From: Gammaproteobacteria bacterium
GTDB taxonomy: Bacteria > Pseudomonadota > Gammaproteobacteria > Eutrophobiales > Eutrophobiaceae
Direction of reading: 5' to 3'
Assembly (NCBI GenBank): GCA_965116585.1
Contig: OZ220714.1
Coordinates: 2,309,247-2,373,246, forward strand
Length of the DNA: 64,000 bases
The notes beneath the pieces were generated by a model. It saw nothing but the letters and a program-made list of their open reading frames with translations, was not told the origin of the DNA and made no database searches. The position numbers and the translations under genes were made by a program. Shown here piece by piece: positions 7,734 to 27,341 of the stretch (positions are counted from its first letter, which is position 1; each line of letters opens with the position of its first letter).

Positions 7734-8108
7734 CTACCATTCGCCCTTCAGAGTTGGTGATTGTCTGGTGTTGTCGTGGTTAACGGCCATTTCCAACTGT
7801 TCGACCAGATCAGGCAGATCGTTCTGTATAGTGTCCCAGAGAATATCGTCGTCGATATTGTGGTAACCATGAACAAGACGATGTCGCATGCCTATGATGT
7901 TATCGAAATCGATATACGCCAGTTCATGTCGTTTTGCTTTTGACACCTGATAGGCCGCTTCACACAGAATTTCTACAAGCCTTACCATTGCCAGCGAATA
8001 CATACGGTCGGAATCCAGATCCTCCCGAGTTTTCCCCTCGCTTAGCTCAATGGCTTCCTGCGCAGCATCCAGCATGTGCAATAGCCGGGTATTATCATCA
8101 ATGAACAT
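7734..8108 (-). CDS. hepT: HepT-like (DUF86) toxin of a HepT/MNT type II toxin-antitoxin pair
   Basis: RX4HXY motif (GMRHRLVHGYHNID), ~124 aa, immediately downstream of an MNT nucleotidyltransferase. Confidence 0.8.
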   Translation of the reverse strand: MFIDDNTRLLHMLDAAQEAIELSEGKTREDLDSDRMYSLAMVRLVEILCEAAYQVSKAKRHELAYIDFDNIIGMRHRLVHGYHNIDDDILWDTIQNDLPDLVEQLEMAVNHDNTRQSPTLKGEW

Positions 8109-8153
8109 AAGTTGTCACGACAGATTCTATCAGGCGGTTAGCAATTCAAGGTT

Positions 8154-8468
8154 TTATGGCGTGGACAAATCGACCAGAATATGTGCATCTTTCACCACCC
8201 TGTCCTGAATATATGGACTCAGATCCCCCATTGTGCGTAAATCAATTTTGCGTTGTCCAAAAAAGAATGACAGGGCTTTTTCCAACCCAACTACTCTGAA
8301 TAGTCCGACTCGAGCGCCAGGTCTGAACTTGACCAACAGATCAATGTCGCTGTCAGGACCGAAATCATTACGCAGCGCTGACCCATACACAGCCAGTTTA
8401 AGGATATCGTTGTTCCGGCAGAACGTTGTAATTTGTTTACTGTCTGGAAGAATCACTTGCGGGTTCAT
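8154..8468 (-). CDS. mnt: MNT nucleotidyltransferase antitoxin (cognate of HepT)
   Basis: GSX10DXD nucleotidyltransferase motif (YGSALRNDFGPDSDIDLLV), 104 aa, upstream of hepT in the same operon. Confidence 0.8.
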   Translation of the reverse strand: MNPQVILPDSKQITTFCRNNDILKLAVYGSALRNDFGPDSDIDLLVKFRPGARVGLFRVVGLEKALSFFFGQRKIDLRTMGDLSPYIQDRVVKDAHILVDLSTP

Positions 8469-8794: not shown

Positions 8795-9472
8795 ATGGTA
8801 GGCGCCATGGGGCATGCGTATCTCGGTTCGAAAGCGACGACGGGGCTGTGCCAACCGTTGATTGCCATGATGCCGCCGCACAGTGTGTACATTGAGACAC
8901 ACTTGGGCGGCGGGGCGATTATGCGGCGCAAGCCGGCGGCGCTGCGCAACATTGGCATTGACATGGATGGGCGGGCGCTGTCGGCGTTCGAGTGTGCGTA
9001 TCCGGTGGAGCTGGTGCAGGGGTGTTGCCACCGGTTTTTAGCGGACTTTCCGTTCGACGGCACGGAGCTGGTGTACAGCGACCCGCCGTATTTGCAGCGT
9101 GCCCGCAAGTCGGGGCGGGGTTATCGGCACGACTACGAGGAGGGCGACCACGAGGCCTTGCTGGCGCTGCTCACGGGGTTGCCGTGTGCGGTGATGCTAT
9201 CGGGGTATCCCTCGGCGTTGTATGACGAGCGGTTGTGTGGCTGGCGCTGCGTGTCGCTGCAGGTGATGAATCAGGCCGGGGTGGTCACGGAGAAGGTATG
9301 GTTCAACTTTGCCCCGGACCGGGTGCACTGGGTGCGTTATGCGGGGCGCAACTTCACGCACCGCCAGCAGGTCAAGCGCAAGGCGGCGAGCTGGGGCCGG
9401 CGGTATCGGGAGTTGCCGCCGGCGGAGCGCCTGGCGGTGCTGGCGGCGATGATGGCGGTGGAGGCGGAGTGA
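8795..9472 (+). CDS. Dam-family N6-adenine DNA methyltransferase (cargo of the IS66-like element)
   Basis: HLGGGAIM (AdoMet-binding FxGxG) followed by the YSDPPY catalytic motif, the D12-class order. The stop lies 4 bp before the transposase start. Confidence 0.75.
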   Translation: MVGAMGHAYLGSKATTGLCQPLIAMMPPHSVYIETHLGGGAIMRRKPAALRNIGIDMDGRALSAFECAYPVELVQGCCHRFLADFPFDGTELVYSDPPYLQRARKSGRGYRHDYEEGDHEALLALLTGLPCAVMLSGYPSALYDERLCGWRCVSLQVMNQAGVVTEKVWFNFAPDRVHWVRYAGRNFTHRQQVKRKAASWGRRYRELPPAERLAVLAAMMAVEAE

Positions 9473-9476
9473 GGGC

Positions 9477-10976
9477 ATGGCGAGCGTGAACAAGACCTCG
9501 CTGCGCACGGAGTTCGAGGCCATCAAGACGCGCTTTGCGGCGCTGTGTGCGGAGGGCAAGCTGAGTCCCGAGGGCCGCGCCCTGTTCGAGGCGATGCTGC
9601 TGCTGTTCGAGTTGCTGCTGGCGGTGTTGATGGAGAAGGCCACGCCGAAGGGAACGCATAACTCGGGCCTGCCGAGTTCCCAAACCGGGCCGGACGAGAC
9701 CGCACGCCGGCAGACCGGCGCCAAGGGCAAGGGGCCGGACCACCGTGCCGCACGGGGCGAGTCAACCCGCGTGGTGGTCGAGACCCGCACCGCCGCGGTC
9801 ACCGAGTGCCGGGCCTGCGGGCGCGACCTCAAGGACCTCCACCCCAGCGGCCACGAGCGGCGCGTGAAGGTCGATATCGTCTTCGAGACAACCGAACTGA
9901 CCGTGAAGGCCGACATCAAGACCTGCCCGCGCTGCCGTACCGAGACCCGCGGGCCGTTTCCGGACACGATGCCGGGCCCCTTGCAGTACGGCCACGGCAT
10001 CGTGGCCTTCGCCACGCACCTGCTCACCGCACAGATGCTCTCACTGCGGCGCGCCGCTCAGACCCTCAAGGCGCTGACCGGGCGCACCATCGCCGAGGCG
10101 ACCTTGCTGGCTTGGCTCTCACGCCTGCACGAGGCCCTGGCCGAGTGGGAGGGGGCCGCCATTGAGCGCCTGCTCGCCGAGCCGGTGCTGCACGCCGATG
10201 AAACCGGCCTGCGCATCGACCGTAAGACCCACTGGCTGCACAGCGTCAGCGCCGGGAACCTGACCGTAAAGCGCGGCCACCGCAAACGGGGCCGCGAGGC
10301 CCTCAAGGACATCGGCATCGTCCCCCGCTATGGCGGTATCCTCGTCCACGACCGCTGGGCCAGCTACTTCGCCTGGGAGAACTGTGAACACGCCCTGTGC
10401 GGCAGCCACCTGCTGCGCGACCTGGCCTTCATCGAAGAGGCCCACGGCCATACCTGGGCAACACGTCTGGGCAACCTCCTGCTCACTACCTGCCGCACCG
10501 TGCGTGACCACCCGAACAAAGCGCTCAGCGACCCCGACTACAAAGCCCTGCGCACACGCTACCGCACCCTCCTCACACAGGCCAGACGGGAACTCCCCAC
10601 ACCCCCTCAGCGTCTCACCGGACAACGCGGACGTATCGCCAAATCCGATGCGCAAAACCTGCATGAAGCCCTCGTCAAGTATGAAACCGACGTGCTGCGC
10701 TTCGCCCGCAACCCCCAGGTCCCGTTCACCAATAACCGCGCCGAGCGCGACCTCCGCATGGCCAAGGTCAAGCAGAAAGTCGCCGGGTGCTTCCGTACCC
10801 CCCACTACGCCGCCGCCTACTGCCGCATCTCCAGCTACTTGCAGTCCATGGCGCTGCAGGGCTACAATCCCCTCACCGCCATCGAGATAGCGCTCAACGG
10901 CAATGCCGCCTCCATGGTAGAGAAACCACCCCAGAATAACCCGGACGACCAGGACCAGGATAAGGGGGGCGAGTAG
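9477..10976 (+). CDS. IS66 family transposase (TnpC-like: zinc ribbon plus DDE domain)
   Basis: CRACGRDL...CPRCRT zinc-finger; ...HADETGLRI...WLHSV... and ...FTNNRAERDLRMAKVKQKVAGCFRT... are IS66 TnpC signature blocks. Confidence 0.9.
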   Translation: MASVNKTSLRTEFEAIKTRFAALCAEGKLSPEGRALFEAMLLLFELLLAVLMEKATPKGTHNSGLPSSQTGPDETARRQTGAKGKGPDHRAARGESTRVVVETRTAAVTECRACGRDLKDLHPSGHERRVKVDIVFETTELTVKADIKTCPRCRTETRGPFPDTMPGPLQYGHGIVAFATHLLTAQMLSLRRAAQTLKALTGRTIAEATLLAWLSRLHEALAEWEGAAIERLLAEPVLHADETGLRIDRKTHWLHSVSAGNLTVKRGHRKRGREALKDIGIVPRYGGILVHDRWASYFAWENCEHALCGSHLLRDLAFIEEAHGHTWATRLGNLLLTTCRTVRDHPNKALSDPDYKALRTRYRTLLTQARRELPTPPQRLTGQRGRIAKSDAQNLHEALVKYETDVLRFARNPQVPFTNNRAERDLRMAKVKQKVAGCFRTPHYAAAYCRISSYLQSMALQGYNPLTAIEIALNGNAASMVEKPPQNNPDDQDQDKGGE

Positions 10977-11036: not shown

Positions 11037-11297
11037 ATGGTAGCCTTTGAAAATCTCTTAAAAACAGAGTCCGATTTCTATGAACGTGAGCAACACAATC
11101 TTTTGGTAAAGTACCCCAACAGGGTTTTGTTAATACACGGTGATCATGTTGAAGGGGATTTTGATTCCGGGAATGCGGCCATATCAGAAGGAGTTCGCAA
11201 GTTTGGTACAGGTCCGTTTTTAGCCAGGAGAGCCGGGGAAGAAGAGCCTGTTTTTTTCAGTGCCAGCATTAACGTTGAGTCTGTAAAATGTCGGTAA
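11037..11297 (+). CDS. 86-aa conserved hypothetical protein (paralog A of the 23007..23267 protein)
   Basis: ~80% aa identity with the ORF at 23007..23267. The ~30 bp upstream (…GTAGCGCGAGGTGCAACTATGG) is also conserved in both copies. No recognisable domain. Confidence 0.6.
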   Translation: MVAFENLLKTESDFYEREQHNLLVKYPNRVLLIHGDHVEGDFDSGNAAISEGVRKFGTGPFLARRAGEEEPVFFSASINVESVKCR

Positions 11298-11352: not shown

Positions 11353-12447
11353 TTATTTGTTGGATTTCCTGCGATTGCAACCCTTGCATAGCATCTGACA
11401 GTTATCCTCGTTTGTCTTGCCACCCTCCGACCAAGGGGTGATGTGGTCAGCCTCCATGTCCACGATCTCAAACACCTTTGCGCATACCTTGCATATCCCC
11501 TTTTGAATCTCGAACGTCCTCTGCTTCATGGCATCGGAGAAGGCTCGGATGTTGAGATGTTTTTCCTCGCCAGTGAGGAGATACGGGTAGATACCCGCCT
11601 TCTTCGTCACATCGTCGTCGATCATCAGGCGGCCAACCTCGACTTCCAGTCTTTCGGGATCCAGTTTCTCGTTCTTGAGTTGCTTGTAAAGCCCACCCCA
11701 ATCCACTCCCTTCATTTGTGTGCGGTAGTTCGGAAAAACCGCCTCCACCCGGTTGATCACCGCCTGGAAGTGACTCCACAAAGCAGTTGCGGTCTTGTCG
11801 TGCTGATGCACGGCCATATACTGCTCGACCGCCTGGTCCTCGTCCTTGATCCATTGGATTGCGGTTTCGAGGTACTCCTGGCGGTCCGCCCTCCCATTCA
11901 CATAACGGCTGCCGATTGCATAAGCCGGGCAGGTGGCCCCCTTCCTGCTGAAATGCCGCTTTGCATCGGATACCCACGGGCCAGCATAAACCGCGTTCCG
12001 CAACTCCTGGTCGGTCAGCCGCTCGCCTGCAATATTGATGATCCTGAACCAAGCCAGCTTTTCGCTGGCGCTTCCCTCGCAGACATAAACCTGCAACGTG
12101 TAGTTAAGAATCCGATCCTGCTCGTCATCTTGCAGGTTATGGAAATACCGCCCGTCAAGGGAGTAGTCGCCTTCCACATACTGTGCGACTGAGATCGTGC
12201 GCTGCTGGCCGTCGATGACCTCATATGTTCCGTCTTCGCGTAGTGCCCAATACATCACATTGAGCGGAAAGCCCTTGTTGATCGTCTCGATCACAGCATC
12301 GCGTTGCTTGTCCTTATAGACGAACTCGCGCTGAAACGGCGGGCGGATGTCGAGTTTACCGCCATAGCCGCGCACCCCGCCTTCGCCGTCGTCGATGTAG
12401 CCCTTCACAAGGTCGCGGACAGTGACTTTCGTCAGAGCAATTTTCAT
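11353..12447 (-). CDS. DUF262 (ParB-like, DGQQR) N-terminal domain fused to a C-terminal HNH endonuclease
   Basis: EVIDGQQRT is the DUF262 motif. The C-terminus HITPWSEGGKTNEDNCQMLCKGCNRRKSN is an HNH motif. A 4-bp overlap with the upstream MTase gene indicates co-transcription. Confidence 0.75.
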   Translation of the reverse strand: MKIALTKVTVRDLVKGYIDDGEGGVRGYGGKLDIRPPFQREFVYKDKQRDAVIETINKGFPLNVMYWALREDGTYEVIDGQQRTISVAQYVEGDYSLDGRYFHNLQDDEQDRILNYTLQVYVCEGSASEKLAWFRIINIAGERLTDQELRNAVYAGPWVSDAKRHFSRKGATCPAYAIGSRYVNGRADRQEYLETAIQWIKDEDQAVEQYMAVHQHDKTATALWSHFQAVINRVEAVFPNYRTQMKGVDWGGLYKQLKNEKLDPERLEVEVGRLMIDDDVTKKAGIYPYLLTGEEKHLNIRAFSDAMKQRTFEIQKGICKVCAKVFEIVDMEADHITPWSEGGKTNEDNCQMLCKGCNRRKSNK

Positions 12448-13505
12448 CGCGACGGCATTCTCTTAATCAGAATGCGTCTATAGGTGCGTTTGTATTGGCC
12501 TCCCACCTTGATAACCCCTCCTTCCCCGTTCAGGTCGTTATAGTTAGTCGCATCTGCGGACGTGTATTTTTTCGTTTTCAGGCCGTAGCGGTCGTCCCTG
12601 TCTGTTATCCCCATGACTTCAAACTGCCCCGGGTTGTGCTTATCCAGAAACGTAATCGGCACCCCCATCGCCCCGTCCCAATCTATCGGGATTTCGGCGG
12701 TCTTGTCCACGTTGATCGCGTCGTAGTTGTCGTAGGCCGGGTATTCCTCCGGCGAGTAGAGCTTGTAGAGGATCAACTCCTCGTGGCGCTTGGCATGGTC
12801 GAGATTGGTGAACCAGGCCGCGTTGCCCAATCGTCCTTTGATAACTCCCTCGACAACTCTGTAGGCGCTCCCCTCCTTTGCGGTCGCCTCCAATTCCCGC
12901 GCGTATCCCTCCGGCACATCGAACAGCATGTCTTGGCCCTTCGGGGTGACGCCAAGCCACATCGTGCCGTCCTTGATTAGGGGGAAAATCTCCTTGTAGG
13001 TGACGGCGTTCTGACTCCCGACGATCAGGAACTTCTTGCCGTACTGCACCAGTTGGGCGACGTATTCGCGGAACAGCGAAAACGGCGGATTGGTCACCAC
13101 GATGTCCGCCTGCTTCAGAAGCTCAATGCACTCCGCGCTGCGGAAATCGCCGTCCCCCTCAAACTCCCGAATTCCGATATCCCCGACTTCTGGCACCCTG
13201 CCGCCCTTCGCGTTCCCCTTGTATTCGAGCCATATCGCCCGCTCCGAATCGTGACGGCTGAACAAGTCACGTTCCTGGTTCCTGTAGCACGCGGTGATGA
13301 GCGTCTTCAGACCCAGGCGCTCAAAGTTGTATGAGAAATAATGAAAGAAGTTGGAGACGCGGGGGTCGTCGCAGTTACAGTACACAACCTTGTCCCGGAA
13401 ATGTCCAGTGTAGTGGCGCAGCTCGTTTTCGATATCGGAAAGCTGCGTGTAGAACTCGTCGTTCTTTTGCCGTTTGGCGTTGCGTAAGTTTTCATTCAGA
13501 GACAT
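12444..13505 (-). CDS. Adenine-specific DNA methyltransferase, EcoRI-methylase-like family
   Basis: N-terminal ...NDEFYTQLSDIENEL...VVYCNCDDPRVSNFFHYF... block and NPPF catalytic motif (VVTNPPFSL). The family assignment is from memory of M.EcoRI-like sequences. Confidence 0.65.
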   Translation of the reverse strand: MSLNENLRNAKRQKNDEFYTQLSDIENELRHYTGHFRDKVVYCNCDDPRVSNFFHYFSYNFERLGLKTLITACYRNQERDLFSRHDSERAIWLEYKGNAKGGRVPEVGDIGIREFEGDGDFRSAECIELLKQADIVVTNPPFSLFREYVAQLVQYGKKFLIVGSQNAVTYKEIFPLIKDGTMWLGVTPKGQDMLFDVPEGYARELEATAKEGSAYRVVEGVIKGRLGNAAWFTNLDHAKRHEELILYKLYSPEEYPAYDNYDAINVDKTAEIPIDWDGAMGVPITFLDKHNPGQFEVMGITDRDDRYGLKTKKYTSADATNYNDLNGEGGVIKVGGQYKRTYRRILIKRMPSR

Positions 13506-13599
13506 GGGTTTGCTCCCGAACCAAGCCCGTTGTCGACGACTAGCTCCCGAGATTTATACCGCCCCAAACTTCGATACTCTACTACACAATTCCCCAAAA

Positions 13600-13729
13600 A
13601 AAGAACAGCCGCGTTAGCGGCGGCTGTCGGGCCGTGGCTCCCTCCTGTCATGACAAGGCATGGGCACACCAACGGTGAGGTTGAGCAAAGTCTATTATAA
13701 CACCCGACACTGTGTCAATGATTTGAATC
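13600..13729. repeat. Copy 2 of the intergenic repeat family
   Basis: ...CCCCAAAAAAAGAACAGCCGCGTTAGCGGCGGCTGTCGGGCCGTGGCTCCC...GTCAATGATTTGAATC is almost identical to 27020..27157. Confidence 0.7.
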
Positions 13730-13832: not shown

Positions 13833-14837
13833 ATGTACTCAAATCGAATTTCATTCTACAAACAACTGGAGGATGCCAGACAGTCTAAGGTGCTGGCGTA
13901 TATCACAGGTGACCGGCGCCAATTAGAGACAAAAATGGCTGCGGAGGTTCTAGACTTCTTTGTCCATCATCTTGACAAGATTGGTGTTGTTGGAAAGCTT
14001 TCTCTATTTCTTTATACCCGTGGTGGGGATACTTTATCAGCTTGGAGCCTCGTTAATTTGTTACGTGCTTTTTGCGATAAGCTAGAGATTATCATTCCTT
14101 CAAAAAGCCATAGTGCCGGAACGTTAGTTTGTCTGGGAGCGGATATATTAGTTATGACTAAACAAGCCACTTTGGGTCCTATTGATCCAAGTGTAAATAC
14201 ACCTCTGAATCCTCAAGTTCCGGGTGGACAACCTATGGCAAATGTACCAGTGAGTGTTGAAGATATTAACGCTTTCCTTGAGCATGCCCGAGAAACAGTT
14301 GGTGTGGGCACTCAACCAAACATCGGTACTGTCTTTGATAGACTTGCGCAAAATGTTCATCCTCTCGTTCTTGGAAGCGCCTTTCGAGCGCGCTCACAGA
14401 TTCGCATGTTGGGAAGCAGGCTCCTTGCTAACCACATGGATAATGAAGATGGTATGAATAAAATCCTGGATTTTTTGTGCAGCGAATCTGGCAGCCATGA
14501 CTACACAATAAACAGAAGAGAAGCTCGAGATGATCTATCCTTACCTATTGAGAAACCAAGCTGGGAACTTTACGAAATAATCAAAACTCTGTATGACGAT
14601 ATTGCCTCAGAATTAGAACTGACTACCGCCTATGATCCAAACTTGGTCTTGGGAGGTTCACAAACTAAGAATTATTCATTTACGCGAGCACTGATTGAGA
14701 GCGCGGGGGGTGGTTCAGATGCTTTCTTAAGTGAGGGGGTTCTCAGTCGCCAACAGATTCAAATTCAGCCAGGTGTTGTAGGAGATGCTATCAACGACCA
14801 ACGTCAGTTTGAAGGATGGAGACATCGTGATGCCTAA
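13833..14837 (+). CDS. SDH-family / ClpP-fold (S49-like) serine protease homolog
   Basis: ...LSLFLYTRGGDTLSAWSLVNLLRAF...PSKSHSAGTLVCLGADILVMTKQATLGPIDP... is a ClpP/crotonase-fold protease core with a Ser nucleophile context. Confidence 0.55.
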   Translation: MYSNRISFYKQLEDARQSKVLAYITGDRRQLETKMAAEVLDFFVHHLDKIGVVGKLSLFLYTRGGDTLSAWSLVNLLRAFCDKLEIIIPSKSHSAGTLVCLGADILVMTKQATLGPIDPSVNTPLNPQVPGGQPMANVPVSVEDINAFLEHARETVGVGTQPNIGTVFDRLAQNVHPLVLGSAFRARSQIRMLGSRLLANHMDNEDGMNKILDFLCSESGSHDYTINRREARDDLSLPIEKPSWELYEIIKTLYDDIASELELTTAYDPNLVLGGSQTKNYSFTRALIESAGGGSDAFLSEGVLSRQQIQIQPGVVGDAINDQRQFEGWRHRDA

Positions 14838-15085: not shown

Positions 15086-15299
15086 CTAGTACTCTTTCAA
15101 TTTAATTCTGACCGGTTAGCTTGTCATAAGCGGTTCACTCCAACGATACTGACCAGCCCAAAGAAACGGTACCAGATGTAAAGTGAGGGATCAGCATTAT
15201 GCCGCCTTTTTTCTTTCTTTTCGATATCTGTCAGCAAACGCCACCACTCGATTAATCTTGACCCGTCGATCAATCAGAATTAAATTGAAAGAGTACTAG
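15086..15299. mobile_element. MITE-like element: 25-bp perfect terminal inverted repeats flanking ~164 bp
   Basis: CTAGTACTCTTTCAATTTAATTCTG (15086..15110) is the exact reverse complement of 15275..15299. It sits between two convergent gene ends; the right inverted repeat overlaps the stop codon of the NACHT gene. Confidence 0.5.
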
Positions 15300-18200
15300 T
15301 GTGGCAAACGAATCTCGCGGAATGCCTCACCGAGCTGAAGTGCCACACTTCGCCGGTCACCCATGTCGACAAGTATGTCGAGGATATGTAAGAACTTCTG
15401 AGCCAAAGCCAGCGCCATTGGCGCGTCACGATGTACAAAGTGTTGTATCATCTCCGCTATGCGCTCCGGGATGAACGTTCCATACCAACCCTTTAGGTTG
15501 TCGGGTCCATCGCCGATAATTGCGAGCACCTGATCCGCGAAGGCTTCGGCTGGGTAGTCGGCCCTGGCTCGCTCACAGAGCGTCAAGAACGGGTCCATAA
15601 CGGAAGCTGCCCATCCGCCAGCGCGAACGAAACGATCAATCAGCGGCAGGATGCGGCTGATTTCGGACCAGTCGCCGTTGACGTAGCGAGTGGCCAGGTC
15701 CGCGCGTTCGACTGAGACAAACATTAACGTGCGAACAAGTTTGGGCAGATCGAAGCCATAGAGATTTCCTCTCCGGTAGCCGTTTTTCTGTAAGGCTGGG
15801 GCTTGCAGAAGCCGGTCAAGACAAAGGTCCAGCGTCGCGACTGCATCCTCTGGGACTACCGGCGCATCGTACACGTAGGAGCAGATGTAAGTATCTACGA
15901 ATGGAGAGAGAAGATCCCAGCAATTGTCACCCTCGATCCCCAATATTGGGTCGAGGAAACGGGCCTGAAAATCACTAAGAGGTAGAAGGCCGACCACCTG
16001 GCCGAGTGCCGACCCGAGGGCGTGGGTCCATTCAAAGCTCTCGGTTGCCGAACGATCTCGACGTCCGGGCTTCATCCAAGGCGGCACATTCTTCTGATTG
16101 GTCCAGTCGAGAACCCCTGTCAGAAAGTTGAGGAGTGCGCTTTTTGCGCTACTGCTTAGGGCCCCGTCGAAGGGGATGCGCTCCAAAATTTCCGCCGCCC
16201 GCTTTGAGTACCAATAGACATCCGGTTCACCCCATACTTCATCTGCGTCGACCGTATCATCTGCATCGTACTCTACAAATCTTTGACACCCACTTCGACC
16301 CTTCCCGGGTTTGACCTTCATCCAGGCCGGAGGCGGTAGCGGAAGGGGCACCCATCCGCTACCGTTTTGATAGAACGCAACCGCCACATCGACCGCCGCT
16401 TGCGCTTCACTTGACGAGTGGAGCGCTTCATTGTGTTGCCTAAGTTGGCCACGCGGCCGCGGAGGAATATGACAGAGCGAAAATGCCAAGATCAGCGCGG
16501 CCCAAGTGAGCTTGGGGTCCTTAGACCAAAGCCTGCACGCTTCTTCGAGCGCAGCTAACGAAACGGCTTCGAGTGGATGCGCAATCAGCCCAAGGAGGTC
16601 GTGAGCTGTGCCCTGTTCGGCTGTGCCTTCGTGGAGGTCCGCTGCGAAGCCTCGCGCTACGTAGATCGCGTGGTGCCATGGGATGACGGAACCAGGCGGC
16701 CACGTCTGACCAGGCTTTTCTGGTAAACGGATAGCGCGTGCCAGGACATCTCGAGACCACTCAAGGTTTTCTTGTGTGCATCGCTCGCGAAAGTTAAGCG
16801 TGATTGCCGCGGTAGCGGCGACTGCGCCACGACGCATACCCGATAGTTCTTCTTCGTCCTCGTCGTCCAGGTGCCTGAACAAGTCGCGGGAGTCCGCTTC
16901 CTTGGCCAATGCTATGGCCCCTTCGACCGTGTAGGTATCGCTCAGTGTCTTCTTCTCGAATGACTTGGAGGCCCAAGTCCAAAGGTTTGTCTGGGCAAGA
17001 CGCTTAGACGCCCCTTCGGCTCTGGTAACGTTTTCAGGCTTAGCAGCAGAAGGACTAACATGGACAACCGCAACCTGGTCCGAATCCTCTTTGGTGCGGT
17101 AAACCTGATAGTTTTCCGGGTCAACTAACTCTGCATATTCCAAGGCCTGAGATGTAAGGTCCTCGCGTGCCTCCAGAATGTCGCGGTGCTCTTCGTACTG
17201 GTAGGGCAAATCGTTCTTAAAATTGAGGACCGCTTCGCGGACCCGGTGGCGGAGCGGTGCCGTCCCAAAGAAAAACATAGGTACCATCCAGCTAAGCTGT
17301 TTGTTACGGACTGGTCTGGCATTTGCTGCTTGGATCGCCTCAATGTGGTGATTATCGTTGCTATTCGTAAAACCGATCAGGTTATTCGTTGACGAAAAGT
17401 CTTGTACCATTCGGTTACGGTCTGCAGTCAACAGTCGTTGTGAGGTAACGAGGGGAAAAGTCGCTTCGCACACCGTCTCGGTATCGAGCGCAAGCATCGA
17501 CGCGATGCCCAGGATGGCGATGCATTCATTCCCTTCTACGATTTGCTGGATCAGTTCATCTACGGCGCGGTTACGCTCAAGCTCGGTGAAGCACCACTCT
17601 TCAAGCGCCATAAACCCGCAACCGATGGCTGCCGGCGCCCACGTTGAACGAAACCAAAGATATTCCCGATCAGTGCCCCAGAACTTTTGGGTGTCCCAGG
17701 GAAACGTCAGTTCGAGTGGTACGGGGGTGCCGCGACGGTCGGGTGAGTGACGATGCAGTTGTCGCCACGCAATCATCGCGTGATTGCAGAGCTCTCGAAG
17801 AAGCCGCAGTGCGTCGTTGGGCGATGATTGGAAAAGCGAGTGAAAGGGCTCTCGAAGCGGTGAAGCATTCGGGAAGCATCGGTGGTCGTCGTGGACCGAC
17901 AGCCTGTTCCAGTCGTGGTGGCTGAAATTGCCGACGGTTCGTAGGGAAAGCGCCCCCGAAAGCGCGATTTCATCTTGACGCGAGCGCTCGGCGTCCGGCT
18001 TGGCAAGAGCTGCTTTGCGCCAGTCAGCCGCATCATGTTGTTCCTGCTTCTCGCGGGCAACTCGCTCGTCCGGAAGCTCCCTTCGCAGGAACGCCAGTGA
18101 AAGCTTAACCACCGGCTGGGGTAATGACTGGGCGAGGACGGGTGAGAAGGTGATGATGTCATGAAATACCTCGTCGCGGATTTGCTTTGAGCTGATTGCT

Positions 18201-20680
18201 CGCTGCAAATAGTTGGCTGCAAGGGCAGGCTCGGCTCTCGATGATCTCAGTAGAAGCTGTCCAAGAGATTTTCGGAAAGCATCCAGGTCGGATACCTTCG
18301 CCCAGTAAGCAGAGTTCTCATCAGGCCCATCGGCGGTACTGATCGCGTCGATGGCGGCGAGCCAGGTAGCGCACTGTTGCAGAAGAGCGCGGGACGTTGG
18401 GTTGCGAATGTCGGCCAGGATATTCTGCCAGACATCGAAGACAGCCACGATCTCCGGATAAAGCCTCTGCGGAATGCCTGAAATGCGTCGAAGGATAAAG
18501 TCGATTAGGCGACGCCACGCGGAGAGGTCGGAAGGCCATCCGAGAAAATAGGCAATCCGTTGTCGTTGCTCTAGTGGATACTCCCCAGAAAGGATCATTT
18601 CATTCGGGGTAGTCTTCTCAGCCTGAAACCAGACGAGCGTCTTCCTGAAAAGGTAGAAGTCATTGGCAAAGACGGCCATCGCGAATTGATCCTCATCAAC
18701 TTCAAACCTCGCAGTTCCGAAAGGACCCACCAGCCAGGCTCGCAACCATTGTGATCTTAGACCTGAATCCCCAGCTTGGGCGAGGTACACTGGCCAGTCT
18801 GCTCCATGTGCATACTCCCATTGGGAAGCGAGTTCGACGACGCGCGCGACCGCTGGTGGTTCGCCGCAGTCCTTGATCACTTCTATCCATTGTGGCCCGC
18901 GATCGGCAAGGACGTGGAAGAAGGCCCATTCAAAGAAGATATCGTGGGCGAAACGGACGGAGATCCCTTCGCGGACATTCAGGAGTATGCCGTCCGATCT
19001 CAGGTCATTGATGTATGTAACGGAGTTGAGTTGGCCAAGGCCAATCGGTTGGCTAAGTTGACGGGCATGAACACGCGCTAAGTTGAGCAGCGCGCGTTGG
19101 CGTTCAATTGCGCGTTGGCCTGTTTCATTGTAGCCGCCCCGTCGCCACCAATTCTCGATCAGATCGATTTCAGATTGTGGAGCGAATGTCGAAGTGCTGG
19201 GGTCGGCTACGTAACCCTGGTTCAGCACCTTCGCGAAAAAGGGTCGTCGGACAATCTCTATCACCTGCGCTGGTCCAAACAGAAGTGGCTTGAGGTGTGG
19301 TTTGGCTTTTGCAAGCGTGTCTGCTTCGTCGTCGCTCAGCTGACCAACGACAAGCGTCTCGACCTTCAGCGCATCAAGGAAGTTACCCAACCAATTACGA
19401 AGCATTTCAATGCCGGTGTCGCGAAGGGAGACAACGACGCGCCAGTTATCGAGTAACGGTGACTCCACGATGGTGCGGACCACATCAATGATGATGGGCT
19501 GGTGCTCATTATTGATGCGATCAATTGCATCAATGAAGAGTATGGGAGTACCGGCAGCCGCAATCTCCAGGAGAAGGTGCTCCAAGGAGGTACCCGAAAG
19601 ACCCTGCGAGGCAGCGTAGCTGGTCCAGCTGGTGCCTTCGAGTTGTTCGGCTTTGAGGAAGAGGACCGGTCCGTGTTCTAACGCGCGCTGTAATGTCCGC
19701 TTTACTACAACTGATTTACCGCTTCCGGGTAGACCGCGCACCTGGACGACACGAGCAGTTGTGAGTTTTGCGTCCAGTTCCTCAAGGAGTGAGGCTCGGT
19801 CGAGCTTCATGCCTCCGATATCATCCGGGATGAGGGTTGCATAGCTCATTGCAAGCTCTGTCAGCTTGTCGAGGTCGGGGCGCAATGAGATCGAGCCGCA
19901 AAGGCGTGCGATTGGTGAAATCAAGCGCACAAGCCGCGCGCGATCAAATTGGCCTGACTTGCCTGCTGATGCGCGGGCTAGTTGAACGAACCGCGACCAG
20001 ATGAGAGGCGCCTTGGCTGTATCATCGGGCGCAAGGCAATCTCGAATGCGATTAATGGCATTAGGGGGATCCGTGGCGCCTTCACGAAGGAAGTCGAACT
20101 GAATGAGCACGAAGTGCGCGAGAAAATGATGCACTTCCTCAGATGTGCATGGTGTCCCCTTCGATTCTTCCAGTAAGGCAACGATGTCATTTTTGACGGC
20201 TTTGATGCCGCCCCTGGCATTGCCCCCCTTTGCAAAGCGAGCGTCGAAATGGTCTGCCGTCAGACTTTCACGAGCCCAATCACAAAGGGTCTTGAGCGCT
20301 CGCTCTTTGGCAGGGGAGATCGTGCCAACTGCAGCGCCGTAACGGTCGGCACTGACGCGGAAGTCAGACTTTCCAAGAGTAGCCCAACTGTCGAGAATGA
20401 TGCCGCGAAAGTGTTTGTTCGTTATTGCATTGCTGATCGTGAGCGAACGCTTTACTTGTAGGCTGAGGCGGGCAGGCTTTTTTTCGGCGTCTTCAAAGTC
20501 AATAATTACATCATCGAGAGGTTCGCCGAAGTCGCGCTGCTGAACTGACACACTGACAACGGTTCGATCATCCATGCCGGGGGCATACTCTTCGGCAAGA
20601 AGCGCGGTGAGATAAAACGCAGCCACATCTCCTTCAAAGGTGAAACCCTCGCCGCCAGCGAGTTCAGGTGATTGTTTCAT
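15296..20680 (-). CDS. 1794-aa NACHT/STAND-type P-loop NTPase with an N-terminal PD-(D/E)xK-like nuclease domain and a long helical C-terminal region (Avs / bacterial-NACHT-like antiphage protein)
   Basis: Walker A VRGLPGSGKSVVV. NACHT-type Walker B PILFIDAIDRI (hhhhDxhD). N-terminal GFTFEGDVAAFYL...VIIDFED...LSLQVKRS resembles Cap4/Mrr-like D...(E/Q)xK nucleases. About 1300 aa of the C-terminus is alpha-helical and W/L-rich. Confidence 0.6.
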   Translation of the reverse strand: MKQSPELAGGEGFTFEGDVAAFYLTALLAEEYAPGMDDRTVVSVSVQQRDFGEPLDDVIIDFEDAEKKPARLSLQVKRSLTISNAITNKHFRGIILDSWATLGKSDFRVSADRYGAAVGTISPAKERALKTLCDWARESLTADHFDARFAKGGNARGGIKAVKNDIVALLEESKGTPCTSEEVHHFLAHFVLIQFDFLREGATDPPNAINRIRDCLAPDDTAKAPLIWSRFVQLARASAGKSGQFDRARLVRLISPIARLCGSISLRPDLDKLTELAMSYATLIPDDIGGMKLDRASLLEELDAKLTTARVVQVRGLPGSGKSVVVKRTLQRALEHGPVLFLKAEQLEGTSWTSYAASQGLSGTSLEHLLLEIAAAGTPILFIDAIDRINNEHQPIIIDVVRTIVESPLLDNWRVVVSLRDTGIEMLRNWLGNFLDALKVETLVVGQLSDDEADTLAKAKPHLKPLLFGPAQVIEIVRRPFFAKVLNQGYVADPSTSTFAPQSEIDLIENWWRRGGYNETGQRAIERQRALLNLARVHARQLSQPIGLGQLNSVTYINDLRSDGILLNVREGISVRFAHDIFFEWAFFHVLADRGPQWIEVIKDCGEPPAVARVVELASQWEYAHGADWPVYLAQAGDSGLRSQWLRAWLVGPFGTARFEVDEDQFAMAVFANDFYLFRKTLVWFQAEKTTPNEMILSGEYPLEQRQRIAYFLGWPSDLSAWRRLIDFILRRISGIPQRLYPEIVAVFDVWQNILADIRNPTSRALLQQCATWLAAIDAISTADGPDENSAYWAKVSDLDAFRKSLGQLLLRSSRAEPALAANYLQRAISSKQIRDEVFHDIITFSPVLAQSLPQPVVKLSLAFLRRELPDERVAREKQEQHDAADWRKAALAKPDAERSRQDEIALSGALSLRTVGNFSHHDWNRLSVHDDHRCFPNASPLREPFHSLFQSSPNDALRLLRELCNHAMIAWRQLHRHSPDRRGTPVPLELTFPWDTQKFWGTDREYLWFRSTWAPAAIGCGFMALEEWCFTELERNRAVDELIQQIVEGNECIAILGIASMLALDTETVCEATFPLVTSQRLLTADRNRMVQDFSSTNNLIGFTNSNDNHHIEAIQAANARPVRNKQLSWMVPMFFFGTAPLRHRVREAVLNFKNDLPYQYEEHRDILEAREDLTSQALEYAELVDPENYQVYRTKEDSDQVAVVHVSPSAAKPENVTRAEGASKRLAQTNLWTWASKSFEKKTLSDTYTVEGAIALAKEADSRDLFRHLDDEDEEELSGMRRGAVAATAAITLNFRERCTQENLEWSRDVLARAIRLPEKPGQTWPPGSVIPWHHAIYVARGFAADLHEGTAEQGTAHDLLGLIAHPLEAVSLAALEEACRLWSKDPKLTWAALILAFSLCHIPPRPRGQLRQHNEALHSSSEAQAAVDVAVAFYQNGSGWVPLPLPPPAWMKVKPGKGRSGCQRFVEYDADDTVDADEVWGEPDVYWYSKRAAEILERIPFDGALSSSAKSALLNFLTGVLDWTNQKNVPPWMKPGRRDRSATESFEWTHALGSALGQVVGLLPLSDFQARFLDPILGIEGDNCWDLLSPFVDTYICSYVYDAPVVPEDAVATLDLCLDRLLQAPALQKNGYRRGNLYGFDLPKLVRTLMFVSVERADLATRYVNGDWSEISRILPLIDRFVRAGGWAASVMDPFLTLCERARADYPAEAFADQVLAIIGDGPDNLKGWYGTFIPERIAEMIQHFVHRDAPMALALAQKFLHILDILVDMGDRRSVALQLGEAFREIRLPH

Positions 20681-21196: not shown

Positions 21197-22276
21197 ATGT
21201 TTGGACAAAGACTCAGATTAGCGCGAAAGAAGGCTGGGTTATCAATGCAGGCCCTTGCAAACAGCGTTATACCCAAAGTTAGCGCACAAGCAATCAGCAA
21301 ATATGAGGCGGAAAAGATGATGCCTTCTTCAGCGGTGCTGGTCGGACTAAGCAAAACGCTTGGCGTGTCCATTGACTTCCTCATGGGAGGGCAAGTCGAA
21401 ACCCTGAAAGGTGTCGAGTTCCGCAAACATTCCGGCACCTCGGCACGAGATCGCGCCCGCGTCGAAGCAATTGTGACTGAAAAGGTCGAAGACTATCTGG
21501 CAATTGAAGACATTCTGGAACTGGTTCCGCTTGCCAATCCCTTTGGCGATCTGGTGACCGATGAGATTGAGAGTATCGAGTACGTTGATGACATGGCCCG
21601 GGCTTTGCGGGAGAAATGGCTGCTGGGACTGGATCCAATTCCCAGCATGTCTGCGCTGCTGGAAGATAAGGGGATTAAAGTTATCGAAGCGGATCTACCG
21701 GATCGTTTCGACGGAATGGCTTGTGATGTAAAGCGTAGTGAGGGCAGACCTGACACGGCAGTCGTCGTTGTGTCCAATCGTACTAATATTGAACGCAAAC
21801 GATTTACTCTCGCCCATGAACTCGCACACAGAGTCATTCGCTCGACTGGTAATCCAGGTATCAATCTTGAAAAAGCCATGAACCGCTTCGCAGGTGCATT
21901 TCTTGTACCAAGCGAACATTTAGTCAAGGAAGCCGGGGCACATCGGCACGGCATGACTTATCACGAGTTGGTTCGGCTAAAACATCTTTATGGCGTTTCG
22001 GCGGTGGCACTGTTGATGCGGCTTATGCAGGTAGATATTTTGTCAAAAGCGGCGACCGAATATGCCTTCCGCAGCTATGCACGCACTTGGCGAGTTGAAG
22101 AACCTGAGCCGATCCGTAATGATGAGGGCTTTGGCACCTTTGAACGGCCACAGCGTTTCGAGCGACTGGTTTGGTGGGCCTTGGGAGAACACCTGATTTC
22201 GTCTGTACGCGCAGCGCAGTTCTTACGTTTGCCGGTTTCGACTATCGAACAGGAAATTCGAGGGCCACAAGACTGA
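21197..22276 (+). CDS. XRE-family HTH domain fused to an ImmA/IrrE-family (COG2856) zinc metallopeptidase
   Basis: N-terminal HTH (FGQRLRLARKKAGLSMQALANSV...SKYE) and a HEXXH motif (LAHELAHRV). Confidence 0.8.
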   Translation: MFGQRLRLARKKAGLSMQALANSVIPKVSAQAISKYEAEKMMPSSAVLVGLSKTLGVSIDFLMGGQVETLKGVEFRKHSGTSARDRARVEAIVTEKVEDYLAIEDILELVPLANPFGDLVTDEIESIEYVDDMARALREKWLLGLDPIPSMSALLEDKGIKVIEADLPDRFDGMACDVKRSEGRPDTAVVVVSNRTNIERKRFTLAHELAHRVIRSTGNPGINLEKAMNRFAGAFLVPSEHLVKEAGAHRHGMTYHELVRLKHLYGVSAVALLMRLMQVDILSKAATEYAFRSYARTWRVEEPEPIRNDEGFGTFERPQRFERLVWWALGEHLISSVRAAQFLRLPVSTIEQEIRGPQD

Positions 22277-23360: not shown

Positions 23361-25322
23361 GTGCAAATTTCAACAATTCTTGATTATATCGATTATGGTC
23401 ACATAGCTCTTCCAGAGTTTCAGCGAGGGTATGTTTGGAATCGGGACCAAGTACGGAGGCTGTTTGATTCTCTTTATTACCGGCATCCGATAGGTGGGCT
23501 TCTAGTCTGGGCAACTGACGCACGCACCGCAGCATTTCGGGGAGATGGGCCAATAGCCCCAGGAGTTGTCAAACTCCTACTAGATGGCCAGCAACGAATG
23601 ACCTCTCTTTACGGCGTCATTCGTGGCCATGCCCCAAAATTCTTCGATGGGAACGATTACACTTTTACAGGTCTTAGCTTTCACTTAGATACTCAAACTT
23701 TTGCCTTTTATCAGCCGATAAAGATGAAAGATGATCCCCTATGGATTGATGTCTCTCAACTCATGAAGGCTGGTACAGATGGTATTGACGGATTTACCTC
23801 CAAGCTCAGTGAGAATCTGGAATTGTCCCAGAAAGGAGTTGGAATGTATGCAGGGCGATTGATTCGTTTACTTGGTATAAGAGATATTGATCTTCATATT
23901 GAGGAGTTAACAGGTGCAGATAAAACCATTGATGTCGTAGTCGATATTTTCAACCGGGTTAACAGCGGCGGCACAAAGCTTTCCAAGGGTGACCTCGCCC
24001 TTGCCAAGATATGTGCTGATTGGCCCGAAGCGAGAGATGCGATGAAAACGACACTCAAGGGGTGGTCTGACGCAGGATATGGCTTCAATATAGACTGGTT
24101 GTTGCGTTCGGTAAACACTGTGCTCACCGGCGAAGCCAAATTTCAGTATTTGCATGATAAAGATGCTATTGAAATACAAGATGGTTTAAACCGCGCTGTT
24201 AAACATATTAATAATTGTCTCAATATGATTGCCGGACGACTGGGGCTTGACCATGATCGAGTTTTCTTTGGTCGGTTTGCAGTACCAGTGATTGTGAGAT
24301 ATCTGGATCGAAGAGGTGGAATGCTCAATGAACAAGAGAGGGATAAGCTTCTATTCTGGTTTGCGCAGGCAGGGATGTGGGGCCGTTTCTCAGGCTCAAC
24401 TGAATCCTACATTGATCAAGACCTTGAAGCTCTCGAAGGCGAGCATGGTGGGCTTAATCAGCTTATAGAACAGCTTCGTCTTTGGCACGGGGGACTGCGT
24501 GTCGAACCGGGACATTTCACAGGCTGGAGTATGGGAGCCCGGTTTTATCCGGTGCTCTACATGCTAACAAGGATGGGGGAAGCCCTCGACTGGGGAACCG
24601 GTTTGCCTCTTAAAGCAAGCCTTTTAGGAAAAATGAACAGTCTTGAAGTCCATCATATCTTCCCAAAATCACAACTATATGATCGAGACTTTTCCAGACA
24701 AGATGTGAATGCGCTCGCAAATTTCTGTTTTTTGACCAAGGATACAAATCTGGTTATAGGTAACAAATTACCGGAAATTTACTTCCCAAAAATTGAGGAG
24801 GCCCATCCGGGCGCACTGAAATCACAATGGATACCCGATGATCCTGTCCTCTGGAATGTAAGTAATTTCCTTGAATTCCTTGAGGCCAGAAAAGCTCTTC
24901 TTGCAGATGAGGTAAATCACCGCATGGAAGAGTTGCTTCATGGTGATAAAAGTTGGCTCACTGGACCGTCTACACCAATGCCAGTGCTTGAACCAATATC
25001 TGTTCCTGGCAGTATAGAAAGTGAGGATGAGGAAAAAGAACTTGAAGATGTCAATAGCTGGATTTCTAAAAATGGACTCCCTCGCGGTACCTTGTCCTAT
25101 GATTTTTCCGACCCTGTAACTGGACAGCAAAAGGCTTTGTTTGATTTGGCTTGGCCGAATGGCATCCAGGAGGAATTAAGCCAGCCGGTTGCCCTGCTGT
25201 TGAATGAAAGTAGTGAGGTTTTAGCCATCGCAAGTCAGGCAGGGTATCGGTGTTTTCTGAGCACTGCTGACCTGCGACGATATATTCAATCAGAGGTGTT
25301 GATTGAAGAAGTCGTTTCTTGA
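23361..25322 (+). CDS. GmrSD-family (DUF262 + DUF1524/His-Me) type IV restriction-like endonuclease
   Basis: GTG start. N-terminal ...LLDGQQRMTSL is the DUF262 motif. ...LEVHHIFPKSQL...NALANFCFLTKDTN is the DUF1524 HNH-like motif. There is a ~150-aa C-terminal extension. Confidence 0.75.
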   Translation: MQISTILDYIDYGHIALPEFQRGYVWNRDQVRRLFDSLYYRHPIGGLLVWATDARTAAFRGDGPIAPGVVKLLLDGQQRMTSLYGVIRGHAPKFFDGNDYTFTGLSFHLDTQTFAFYQPIKMKDDPLWIDVSQLMKAGTDGIDGFTSKLSENLELSQKGVGMYAGRLIRLLGIRDIDLHIEELTGADKTIDVVVDIFNRVNSGGTKLSKGDLALAKICADWPEARDAMKTTLKGWSDAGYGFNIDWLLRSVNTVLTGEAKFQYLHDKDAIEIQDGLNRAVKHINNCLNMIAGRLGLDHDRVFFGRFAVPVIVRYLDRRGGMLNEQERDKLLFWFAQAGMWGRFSGSTESYIDQDLEALEGEHGGLNQLIEQLRLWHGGLRVEPGHFTGWSMGARFYPVLYMLTRMGEALDWGTGLPLKASLLGKMNSLEVHHIFPKSQLYDRDFSRQDVNALANFCFLTKDTNLVIGNKLPEIYFPKIEEAHPGALKSQWIPDDPVLWNVSNFLEFLEARKALLADEVNHRMEELLHGDKSWLTGPSTPMPVLEPISVPGSIESEDEEKELEDVNSWISKNGLPRGTLSYDFSDPVTGQQKALFDLAWPNGIQEELSQPVALLLNESSEVLAIASQAGYRCFLSTADLRRYIQSEVLIEEVVS

Positions 25323-27157: not shown

Positions 27158-27341
27158 ACAAGCCAGGTACCCTCATCCGGCATCGAAAGCGTTACATCAA
27201 GATAAATCCACTTTATGGTGGTATTTCAGACAGAATATGTTGTTTATTACCTTGTATTTTTGACAATTACTGTTAATAATAACCTTGTATTTTTGACATT
27301 TCTGTATTATAGTGCCTTCTTATTTGCCGGAGGTACCAACC

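Follow-up and report, generated by a model that had tools for sequence, protein, structure and literature searches.

A two-gene locus was analysed within a window of 64,000 nucleotides (the whole stretch of DNA under analysis, positions 2,309,247 to 2,373,246 of contig OZ220714.1, assembly GCA_965116585.1) from a Gammaproteobacteria bacterium of the family Eutrophobiaceae. It consists of a gene for an EcoRI-like DNA methyltransferase (MTase), followed in the same orientation by a gene for a nuclease that joins an N-terminal DUF262 domain to a C-terminal HNH domain (Table 1). A first-pass annotation of this DNA had described the pair as an atypical restriction-modification (R-M)-like system. 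Its basic observations hold, since both open reading frames (ORFs) lie where it had placed them, they share the four bases ATGA, and the observation as a whole is far beyond chance; likewise, the assignment of the first protein as an EcoRI-methylase-like enzyme with an NPPF motif and that of the second as a DUF262 plus HNH protein are borne out by full-length and domain matches with intact motifs. Its interpretation, in turn, is supported in part.

Table 1. Features of the two-gene module, of its surroundings in the window and of related loci (aa, amino acids; coordinates without a locus prefix are those of the window)
Feature	Position	Strand	Basis
EcoRI-family (gamma-class) N6-adenine MTase, 353 aa, first gene of the module	12444..13505	-	PF13651, PADLOC MTase_II, identity to M.EcoRI
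NPPF catalytic motif IV (aa 139-142) inside invariant TNPPFSxF	13080..13091	-	Homologue alignments
MTase hypervariable cassette 1, aa 182-235, candidate target-recognition element	12801..12962	-	Bimodal identity to the window
MTase hypervariable cassette 2, aa ~298-340, variable length	12486..12614	-	Alignment
DUF262(ParB/Srx)-helical-HNH nuclease, 364 aa, second gene of the module	11353..12447	-	Pfam PF03235 + PF01844
ATGA overlap of MTase stop codon and nuclease start codon	12444..12447	-	Reading TCG CGA TGA / ATG AAA
ParB/Srx-fold DUF262 domain of the nuclease, aa 1-155	11983..12447	-	Motifs invariant in alignment; Foldseek
Eight-helix middle domain of the nuclease, aa ~157-300, ParBDB-like	11548..11979	-	AlphaFold2 model
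Zinc-ribbon HNH domain of the nuclease, aa 305-364: C319xxC322, D334-H335, N349, C354xxC357, N358	11356..11535	-	Motifs, model
Short leader with GGGAG ribosome-binding site, travelling with the module	13506..13594	-	blastn homology edges, sequence
Terminator-like hairpin + T-run, directly upstream of the module boundary	13604..13628	-	Consensus scan
HEPN/minimal-nucleotidyltransferase-like (HepT/MntA-type) toxin-antitoxin pair, ORFs of 124 and 104 aa in overlapping frames	7734-8468	-	Judged by sequence alone
Truncated Dam-like/type II MTase fragment, 225 aa, matching the C-terminal part of models only	8795-9472	+	
IS66-family transposase	9477-10976	+	NCBIfam E 7e-72
86-aa ORF, convergent with the nuclease gene, between module and IS66 element	11037-11297	+	
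SDH-type ClpP-like serine protease homologue	13833-14837	+	Pfam E 2e-12, partial match
Avs4-like 1794-aa protein	15296-20680	-	NCBIfam Avs4 E 8e-28, aa 291-590, well below curated cut-off
RmrA-like helix-turn-helix (HTH) + M78/IrrE peptidase	21197-22276	+	PADLOC E 2e-43
Second, unrelated DUF262 protein, 653 aa, HEC-05-like	23361-25322	+	GmrSD_N E 5e-26; best PADLOC model HEC-05, E 1e-42
PDC-S01 AAA_14/DUF4143 ATPase	27312-28670	+	PADLOC E 9e-152
MTase arrays in related loci	L155:519-3624; L165:194-3087 (also L166); L104:1818-3981; L071:436-3427		

The MTase matches the Pfam family EcoRI_methylase (PF13651) over practically the entire profile (positions 1-344 of 345, E 2.9e-132, 441.6 bits against a cut-off of 26.4) and the PADLOC model MTase_II PDLC03297 with E 2.9e-115. 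Over aa 2-304 it is 50% identical to authentic M.EcoRI from the E. coli plasmid P4, whose gene adjoins one named 'type-2 restriction enzyme EcoRI'. The NPPF motif is invariant in 48 homologues and at least 98% conserved in 72 MTases derived from the related loci; together with the invariant DEFYT motif, this indicates that the catalytic and S-adenosylmethionine (AdoMet) motifs are intact. A sequence search of the PDB with the MTase gave no match, and the AlphaFold2 model obtained for it (predicted local distance difference test score, pLDDT, 62; predicted template modelling score, pTM, 0.52) was too poor and was left out of the fold search and of the interpretation.

In the nuclease, Pfam detects GmrSD_N (PF03235) at aa 34-154 (E 1.4e-18) and HNH (PF01844) at aa 319-364 (E 3.2e-14), the C-terminus also matching PF14279. 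Its AlphaFold2 model, calculated on a two-clade alignment (pLDDT 85.3, pTM 0.72), displays an alpha/beta N-terminal part (aa 1-155), eight helices (aa 157-292) and a beta-beta-alpha HNH part (aa 305-364). Foldseek matches of the N-terminal domain include ParB-CDP/CTPgS, Noc and KorB, and the three motifs reported for DUF262 domains, QRxxxW, DGxQR and FxxxN (PMC12065111), are found as Q39-R40...Y44, D79-GQQ-R83 and F134...N138, all of them invariant except F134 (at least 90%). The middle domain resembles the DNA-binding ParBDB domain that comes after DUF262 in GmrSD, SspE, DndB and NsnA. The HNH domain reads DHITPW and retains D334, H335, N349 and N358, as well as the zinc ligands C319, C322 and C354, as invariant residues, C357 being 70-90% conserved. 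The doubt raised in the first-pass annotation, namely that the domain might lack its catalytic histidine or its metal ligands, is thus dispelled.

Neither a helicase nor a P-loop was found in the nuclease by Pfam, PADLOC or structure comparison. Pfam gave no match to PF07510 (DUF1524), and the PADLOC models for GmrSD, BrxU and SspE gave no significant one; those for NsnA (E 8.6e-28) and PD-T4-2_A (E 6e-12) were matched exclusively at aa ~30-160. Judged by its domains, the nuclease is a GmrSD-like sensor/NTPase chassis in which a classical zinc-HNH domain takes the place of DUF1524. The first-pass annotation had considered this architecture the hallmark of GmrSD/SspE-type enzymes, which is right for the DUF262 domain but not for the nuclease domain, a PF01844 zinc-ribbon HNH as in McrA and Cas9. 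Its further claim that enzymes of these types have no cognate modifier does not hold as a family rule, because SspE is reported to work with a dedicated partner, the phosphorothioation system SspABCD (PMC12707154, PMC13251355). By analogy with GmrSD, BrxU and SspE (PMC4619093, PMC12707154, PMC12065111), the conserved DGQQR pocket would imply nucleoside triphosphate (NTP)-gated activity in every reading of the locus as an R-M system.

The ATGA overlap would couple the translation of both genes. Of 81 related loci, 41 show the same 4-bp overlap and 69 keep the two genes within +/-30 bp of each other. Of the earlier statement that the genes are co-transcribed, the overlap itself is confirmed, and co-transcription is inferred from this overlap and its conservation. 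The MTase ATG is preceded by a GGGAG Shine-Dalgarno sequence. In blastn comparisons, homology to other loci starts 0-90 bp 5' of this ATG and stops a few bases from the nuclease stop codon; flanking repeats or a dedicated mobility gene were looked for at the module and not found, homology stopping at the ORF ends. By these edges, the mobile unit is a bare two-gene cassette, made of both ORFs and at most 90 bp more. The IS66 transposase gene beside it belongs to a separate element, and the hairpin with its T-run probably shields the module from upstream transcription.

Related loci were gathered by nuclease similarity. At least 8000 candidates were scored, the best 120 matches being all at least 81% identical, and an exhaustive search against representatives clustered at 50% identity gave 7332 representatives with E<=1e-3, of which 486 reach E<=1e-30. 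Among GTDB species representatives, 563 stretches encode nuclease relatives, and the best 80 of these belong to Gamma- and Alphaproteobacteria, Acidobacteriota, Latescibacterota, Gemmatimonadota, Chloroflexota, Bacteroidota, Poribacteria, Planctomycetota, Neisseriaceae and one Nitrosopumilus archaeon. The MTase gene lies directly upstream of the nuclease gene in ~74 of these best 80 loci, and upstream of it in all 80 viral contigs examined (of 292 found). Plasmids of Aeromonas, Sulfitobacter, Macrococcoides, Gordonia, lactobacilli and E. faecium display the same order, MTase before nuclease, with identity down to 38-39% in E. faecium, and so does the cultured Flavobacterium phage laban6-1. Carriers in culture include Neisseria lactamica NS19, N. 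perflava CCUG 17915, Alysiella crassa DSM 2578, Macrococcoides canis (pMiCAN82a), Sulfitobacter indolifex (CP084958) and E. faecium (pBN83-1). Exceptions to direct pairing are explained by insertion sequences (IS) into or between the genes, or by other inserted genes. A third conserved component sought between the MTase and nuclease genes was not found, the inserts being heterogeneous; such a component was ruled out, as the inserted ORFs encode ORF6N, OLD ATPase-TOPRIM and Fic proteins, transposases and unknowns. A homing-endonuclease reading was also discarded, since the insertion contexts are unrelated and site-specific homing is therefore unlikely.

Some side observations were made on these loci. 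The gap between the two genes repeatedly gains unrelated genes (L066:5447-6004, L071:3439-6032, L072:5041-5979), among them those of ORF6N/KilA-N-type DNA-binding proteins, an OLD-family ATPase-TOPRIM protein and an HTH-Fic protein, behaving as a small integration hot spot. Copies of the two-gene cassette more than 80% identical are common to metagenome-assembled genomes (MAGs) of ~10 phyla (L008-L038), many of them sponge microbiome bins (named APA_, COS, RHO3, SB06xx and Plut_; also Poribacteria and Latescibacterota), which suggests intense recent horizontal exchange of the cassette within the sponge habitat. The copy in the archaeal Nitrosopumilus MAG (L078) shows 62% identity.

Divergence is distributed very unevenly along the module. 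Two hypervariable segments were delimited in the MTase, cassette 1 and cassette 2, the latter preceding a conserved C-terminal strand of the form Y-x-R-I-x-I-K/R. The identity of cassette 1 to that of the window is bimodal, being either ~90% or ~30%, with flanks 74-93% identical. In 26 loci with nucleases at least 74% identical, 32-38% of pairs have less than 45% identity in the MTase alignment windows that start at aa 181-211, and 54-57% in those from aa 291; the flanking MTase windows keep a median identity of ~80-90%, and for each nuclease window the share of pairs under 45% is 6% at most. When 69 loci were classified, 13 types of cassette 1 and 24 types of cassette 2 were distinguished in 37 combinations, as exemplified (cassette 1/cassette 2) by A/A in the window, A/B' in L009, B/A in L004, B/B' in L036 and C/B' in L024.

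Nuclease divergence follows that of the MTase core (Spearman 0.62) and scarcely that of cassette 1 (0.23) or cassette 2 (0.26), and the cassettes assort independently of each other (Spearman 0.08). Different cassettes are seen with nucleases up to 95% identical, and one cassette type is shared by loci with nucleases merely 53% identical. No column of the nuclease alignment partitions by cassette-1 type, and residues 2-7 of the nuclease are the only ones associated with cassette-2 type, because of their physical linkage to the 3' end of the MTase gene, which is itself swapped. The independent viral contigs repeat the pattern. Conservation of the nuclease exceeds that of the MTase in 98% of 2145 pairs, and where viral nucleases are at least 75% identical, 64% of pairs have less than 45% identity in cassette 1 and 88% in cassette 2.

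MTases linked to EcoRI nucleases were used as a control. Here, the same two segments are the best conserved ones (77-96% and 78-89% identity, versus 57-80% for the core, aa 1-181), and the accompanying restriction endonucleases (REases), 64-88% identical, presumably share one specificity. In their evolution the segments thus resemble target-recognition elements and not drifting loops. One DUF262-linked MTase (L044) combines an EcoRI-like cassette 1 with an unrelated cassette 2.

Other arrangements of the genes point in the same direction, as weaker support for a specificity that the MTase would supply. In 5 of 160 loci, mostly on large viral contigs, 2-3 paralogous MTases with different cassettes precede a single nuclease. 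The search among representatives also yielded two single-chain MTase-DUF262-HNH fusions, P0400 (688 aa) and P0495 (515 aa); in P0400 the NPPF motif of the MTase half has become FPSF and DEFYT is lost, the nuclease motifs being intact; this protein could be a real fusion in which a dead MTase acts as a DNA reader. Finally, in 4 of 80 genomic loci, all from MAG data, an intact and motif-complete nuclease stands beside an MTase that is IS-split, a remnant or absent.

Regarding what is already catalogued, the nuclease matches the PADLOC model REase_II PDLC03418 from end to end (E 3.9e-138, aa 1-364 against profile positions 1-372 of 372), as do divergent relatives from Enterococcus, Neisseria and a viral contig, all of which match PDLC03418. 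M.EcoRI is the top scorer on the MTase model PDLC03297, R.EcoRI falling under another REase model, PDLC03551. With full-length PADLOC models matching both proteins, defence-annotation tools would already call the locus 'RM type II'. We take the PADLOC R-M models to be built from REBASE sequence clusters that include predicted enzymes, and a PADLOC model is for this reason not a proof of biochemical characterisation. NCBI names the MTase 'adenine-specific methyltransferase EcoRI family protein', and the nucleases 'DUF262 domain-containing protein', 'HNH endonuclease' or 'GmrSD restriction endonuclease domain-containing protein'. A full-text literature search for a pair of EcoRI-like MTase and DUF262-HNH nuclease found neither a description nor a biochemical characterisation.

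The gene pair itself is hence widespread and already catalogued as type II R-M, and it is not new as a pair. The rarity implied by the first-pass annotation does not stand against PADLOC models for both proteins and a pairing observed in ~150 of 160 loci examined. The same annotation had foreseen that REBASE might hold this very pair as a characterised R-M family; as to cataloguing this is probably so, given the PADLOC models, and a characterised member was not found. What does seem to be new, as the alignments suggest, is the decoupling of recognition-type cassettes in the MTase from a constant nuclease, and the locus is probably a non-canonical R-M variant, mechanistically uncharacterised.

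Comparison with known systems helps to place it. The module has in common with EcoRI the MTase family PF13651 and its PADLOC model, as well as being a two-gene module on mobile DNA. On the contrary, R.EcoRI is a PD-(D/E)XK enzyme unrelated to the DUF262-HNH nuclease, the EcoRI genes run from nuclease to MTase with a 20-36 bp gap instead of from MTase to nuclease with an overlap, and cassettes 1 and 2 of the window are just 29% and 7% identical to the corresponding segments of M.EcoRI. With the GmrSD family, the nuclease has in common an N-terminal DUF262 domain with the (I/V)DGQQR motif. It differs from GmrSD, Eco94GmrSD, BrxU and SspE in its PF01844 zinc-ribbon HNH, in place of DUF1524 with (D/E)HxxP, is ~200 aa shorter than GmrSD, BrxU and SspE (364 versus 560-600 aa), and nearly always stands beside an MTase for N6-methyladenine (m6A), presumably targeting unmodified DNA. 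Menshen NsnA, PD-T4-2 A and HEC-05 also carry a DUF262 domain, probably with a ParBDB-type helical domain common to them and to the nuclease; nevertheless, they match at the N-terminus only, have other partners (ABC ATPase plus effector, among others), and possess neither a fused HNH nor a cognate MTase.

Type III Mod-Res systems resemble the module in the order of overlapping or adjacent genes (mod before res), in having, here by prediction, a nucleotide-dependent module besides the nuclease, in the exchangeable segments (here candidate recognition elements) within a conserved MTase backbone, and in a nuclease subunit conserved without matching variation. They differ in their superfamily 2 (SF2) helicase-type ATPase and PD-(D/E)XK nuclease, where the module has a ParB/Srx fold and an HNH, and in their beta-class Mod, the MTase of the window being gamma-class and EcoRI-like; moreover, a complex between MTase and nuclease and MTase-dependent targeting are here deduced features. 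As in type II R-M systems, the MTase is a separate protein with intact catalytic and AdoMet motifs, and the adjacent nuclease matches a catalogued type II REase family.

Considering that (i) the pairing of both genes is near-obligate, (ii) they are co-oriented and translationally coupled, and (iii) they move together, the locus very probably constitutes a genuine R-M module, in which the MTase would protect DNA and the nuclease would restrict DNA devoid of the mark. As a full explanation, a mobile two-gene R-M module with an MTase-directed DUF262-HNH nuclease is plausible, though we stop a little short of calling it probable; somewhat more tentatively, the MTase may supply specificity to an NTP-gated ParB-like/HNH nuclease by a logic similar to that of type III systems. 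The MTase would write m6A at a site set by its two exchangeable recognition cassettes, and the nuclease, coupled to it in translation, would attack DNA without this mark. The nuclease would have no sequence specificity of its own, being directed to unmethylated sites within a complex with the MTase, as in type III or type I systems, and its DUF262 domain would act as an NTP-dependent switch that licenses the HNH, as in GmrSD, BrxU and SspE. With still more reserve, the module could represent an undescribed helicase-free class of R-M systems, combining a ParB/Srx NTP switch, a ParBDB-like clamp and an HNH, and programmed by an EcoRI-family MTase with recombining cassettes.

A free-standing type II REase must recognise the sequence of its MTase, and a swap of MTase recognition without a change in the nuclease should consequently be lethal. 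Cassette shuffling with an unchanged nuclease therefore favours a nuclease without its own specificity, either working in a complex with the MTase or reading m6A. This is also why the option of a new type II-like restriction enzyme, put forward in the first-pass annotation, survives as regards its role in R-M and fits poorly as a free-standing REase. A classical type IIP-like system, in which the DUF262-HNH protein would be independently site-specific through its helical domain, the MTase would methylate the same site, and the variable segments would be specificity-neutral or isospecific, is consequently considered unlikely. It does have in its favour the full-length REase_II and MTase_II labels of PADLOC, an MTase of the monomeric EcoRI type with 50% identity to M.EcoRI, a composition of just two genes without helicase or S subunit, and the likeness of the helical domain to the DNA-binding ParBDB domain. 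However, freely drifting loops would not be the segments best conserved in the isospecific EcoRI-linked lineage, nor do they agree with wholesale replacement at sharp boundaries and independent assortment; nearly identical nucleases with different cassettes, and with no residue that tracks cassette type, speak against it too. MTase arrays served by one nuclease and intact nucleases by destroyed MTases are likewise unexpected for a free-standing REase, as is a conserved NTP-binding DGQQR motif.

A nuclease that reads the mark itself would also leave the specificity of the MTase free to vary. The DUF262 and helical domains would then sense m6A largely independently of sequence, in a manner akin to SspE, which senses phosphorothioate, and to GmrSD and BrxU, which sense modified cytosines. 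Recognition of this self mark would switch the activity of NTPase and HNH, and only DNA without m6A would be nicked or cut. This must be regarded as rather improbable, because no DUF262 protein reading m6A was found in the literature, generic detection of a missing sparse mark is mechanistically harder than reading a site, and protection would come from m6A of any origin, be it host Dam or an MTase of a phage, lessening the need for a coupled dedicated MTase. The model of a complex between MTase and nuclease is preferred over m6A reading owing to the tight translational coupling, the fusions and the signature of target-recognition domain shuffling, which fit a physical complex better. Far less credible still, to the point of being highly improbable, is a type IV (GmrSD-like) enzyme against foreign modified DNA with an MTase that is functionally unrelated or a mere neighbour, even if the GmrSD_N domain, the structural similarity to BrxU and SspE, the resemblance of the HNH to those of the type IV enzymes McrA and TagI, and the NCBI name given to some members would suit it. 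Against it stand a co-oriented and usually overlapping MTase in ~150 of 160 loci, be they bacterial, archaeal, plasmid-borne or phage-borne and with identities as low as 38%, the movement of both genes as one unit whose homology ends at the ORF ends, the co-divergence of MTase core and nuclease, and a nuclease without the DUF1524 domain of GmrSD. With a near-obligate pairing, the reading as a type IV enzyme with a chance neighbour was rejected.

Several points weigh against an MTase-directed nuclease. In PADLOC, the nuclease is classed among the ordinary type II REases. The control comprises only three EcoRI-linked MTases, two of them close relatives, and the role of the cassettes in specificity is deduced from this small control and from evolutionary behaviour, the MTase model (pLDDT 62) being too poor to show where the cassettes lie with respect to the active site. 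Scattered nuclease residues that retune specificity could escape detection in a comparison of 20 versus 6 loci. Gathering the loci by nuclease similarity inflates the finding that the nuclease is more conserved than the MTase; nonetheless, this bias does not explain a collapse of identity limited to the cassettes, since the mean identity of the MTase core is 83% when nucleases share 80% identity or more. Palindrome avoidance in ~1 Mb of carrier loci gave no recognition-site signal, GAATTC and other AATT-core sites not being depleted and many other palindromes being so in these genomes rich in R-M systems; the 50% identity to M.EcoRI allows no more than a guess at an AATT-type core of the recognition site. 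Lastly, the fusions could be frameshift artefacts at the ATGA overlap, and the MAG loci devoid of an MTase may be explained by faulty assembly, by polar silencing or by a second copy that protects in trans.

The module sits within a defence island that extends from ~7.7 kb to 28.7 kb of the window. On its nuclease side, the MTase fragment abutting the IS66 element is possibly a degraded R-M remnant, and the convergent 86-aa ORF gave no match in Pfam, NCBIfam or PADLOC and is not included in the homology with other loci. On its MTase side, the ClpP-like gene is divergent from the module, occupies a low-GC (43%) stretch and has no PADLOC match. The 1794-aa protein next to it, which also shows an N-terminal match to the PADLOC model 'DUF626_VIII', looks like an Avs/STAND-like defence protein. 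Neither HNH nor DUF1524 was matched in the 653-aa DUF262 protein and no MTase gene is adjacent to it, so this may be a separate defence gene with a GmrSD-like sensor. The RmrA-like and PDC-S01 genes, in a stretch of 44-50% GC, extend the island to its far end.

The module is among the most widely spread two-gene R-M cassettes in the databases searched, with 486 clusters (50% identity, E<=1e-30), ~10 bacterial phyla, an archaeon, plasmids and ~300 viral contigs, and both the nuclease architecture and the decoupling of the cassettes merit experimental attention. Were it an ordinary type II system, it would still offer a large supply of HNH restriction enzymes yet to be characterised, possibly of several specificities. 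If, on the contrary, specificity derives from the MTase, the annotation 'type II' would misdescribe the logic of the system, and the sensor-nuclease chassis of GmrSD and SspE would be convertible from modification-dependent to modification-blocked restriction. The module would then be a functional analogue of type III and type I systems built from GmrSD-type parts, which would account for its spread across phyla, plasmids and phages and for the arrays of several MTases per nuclease, and it would provide a compact and reprogrammable MTase-guided nuclease.

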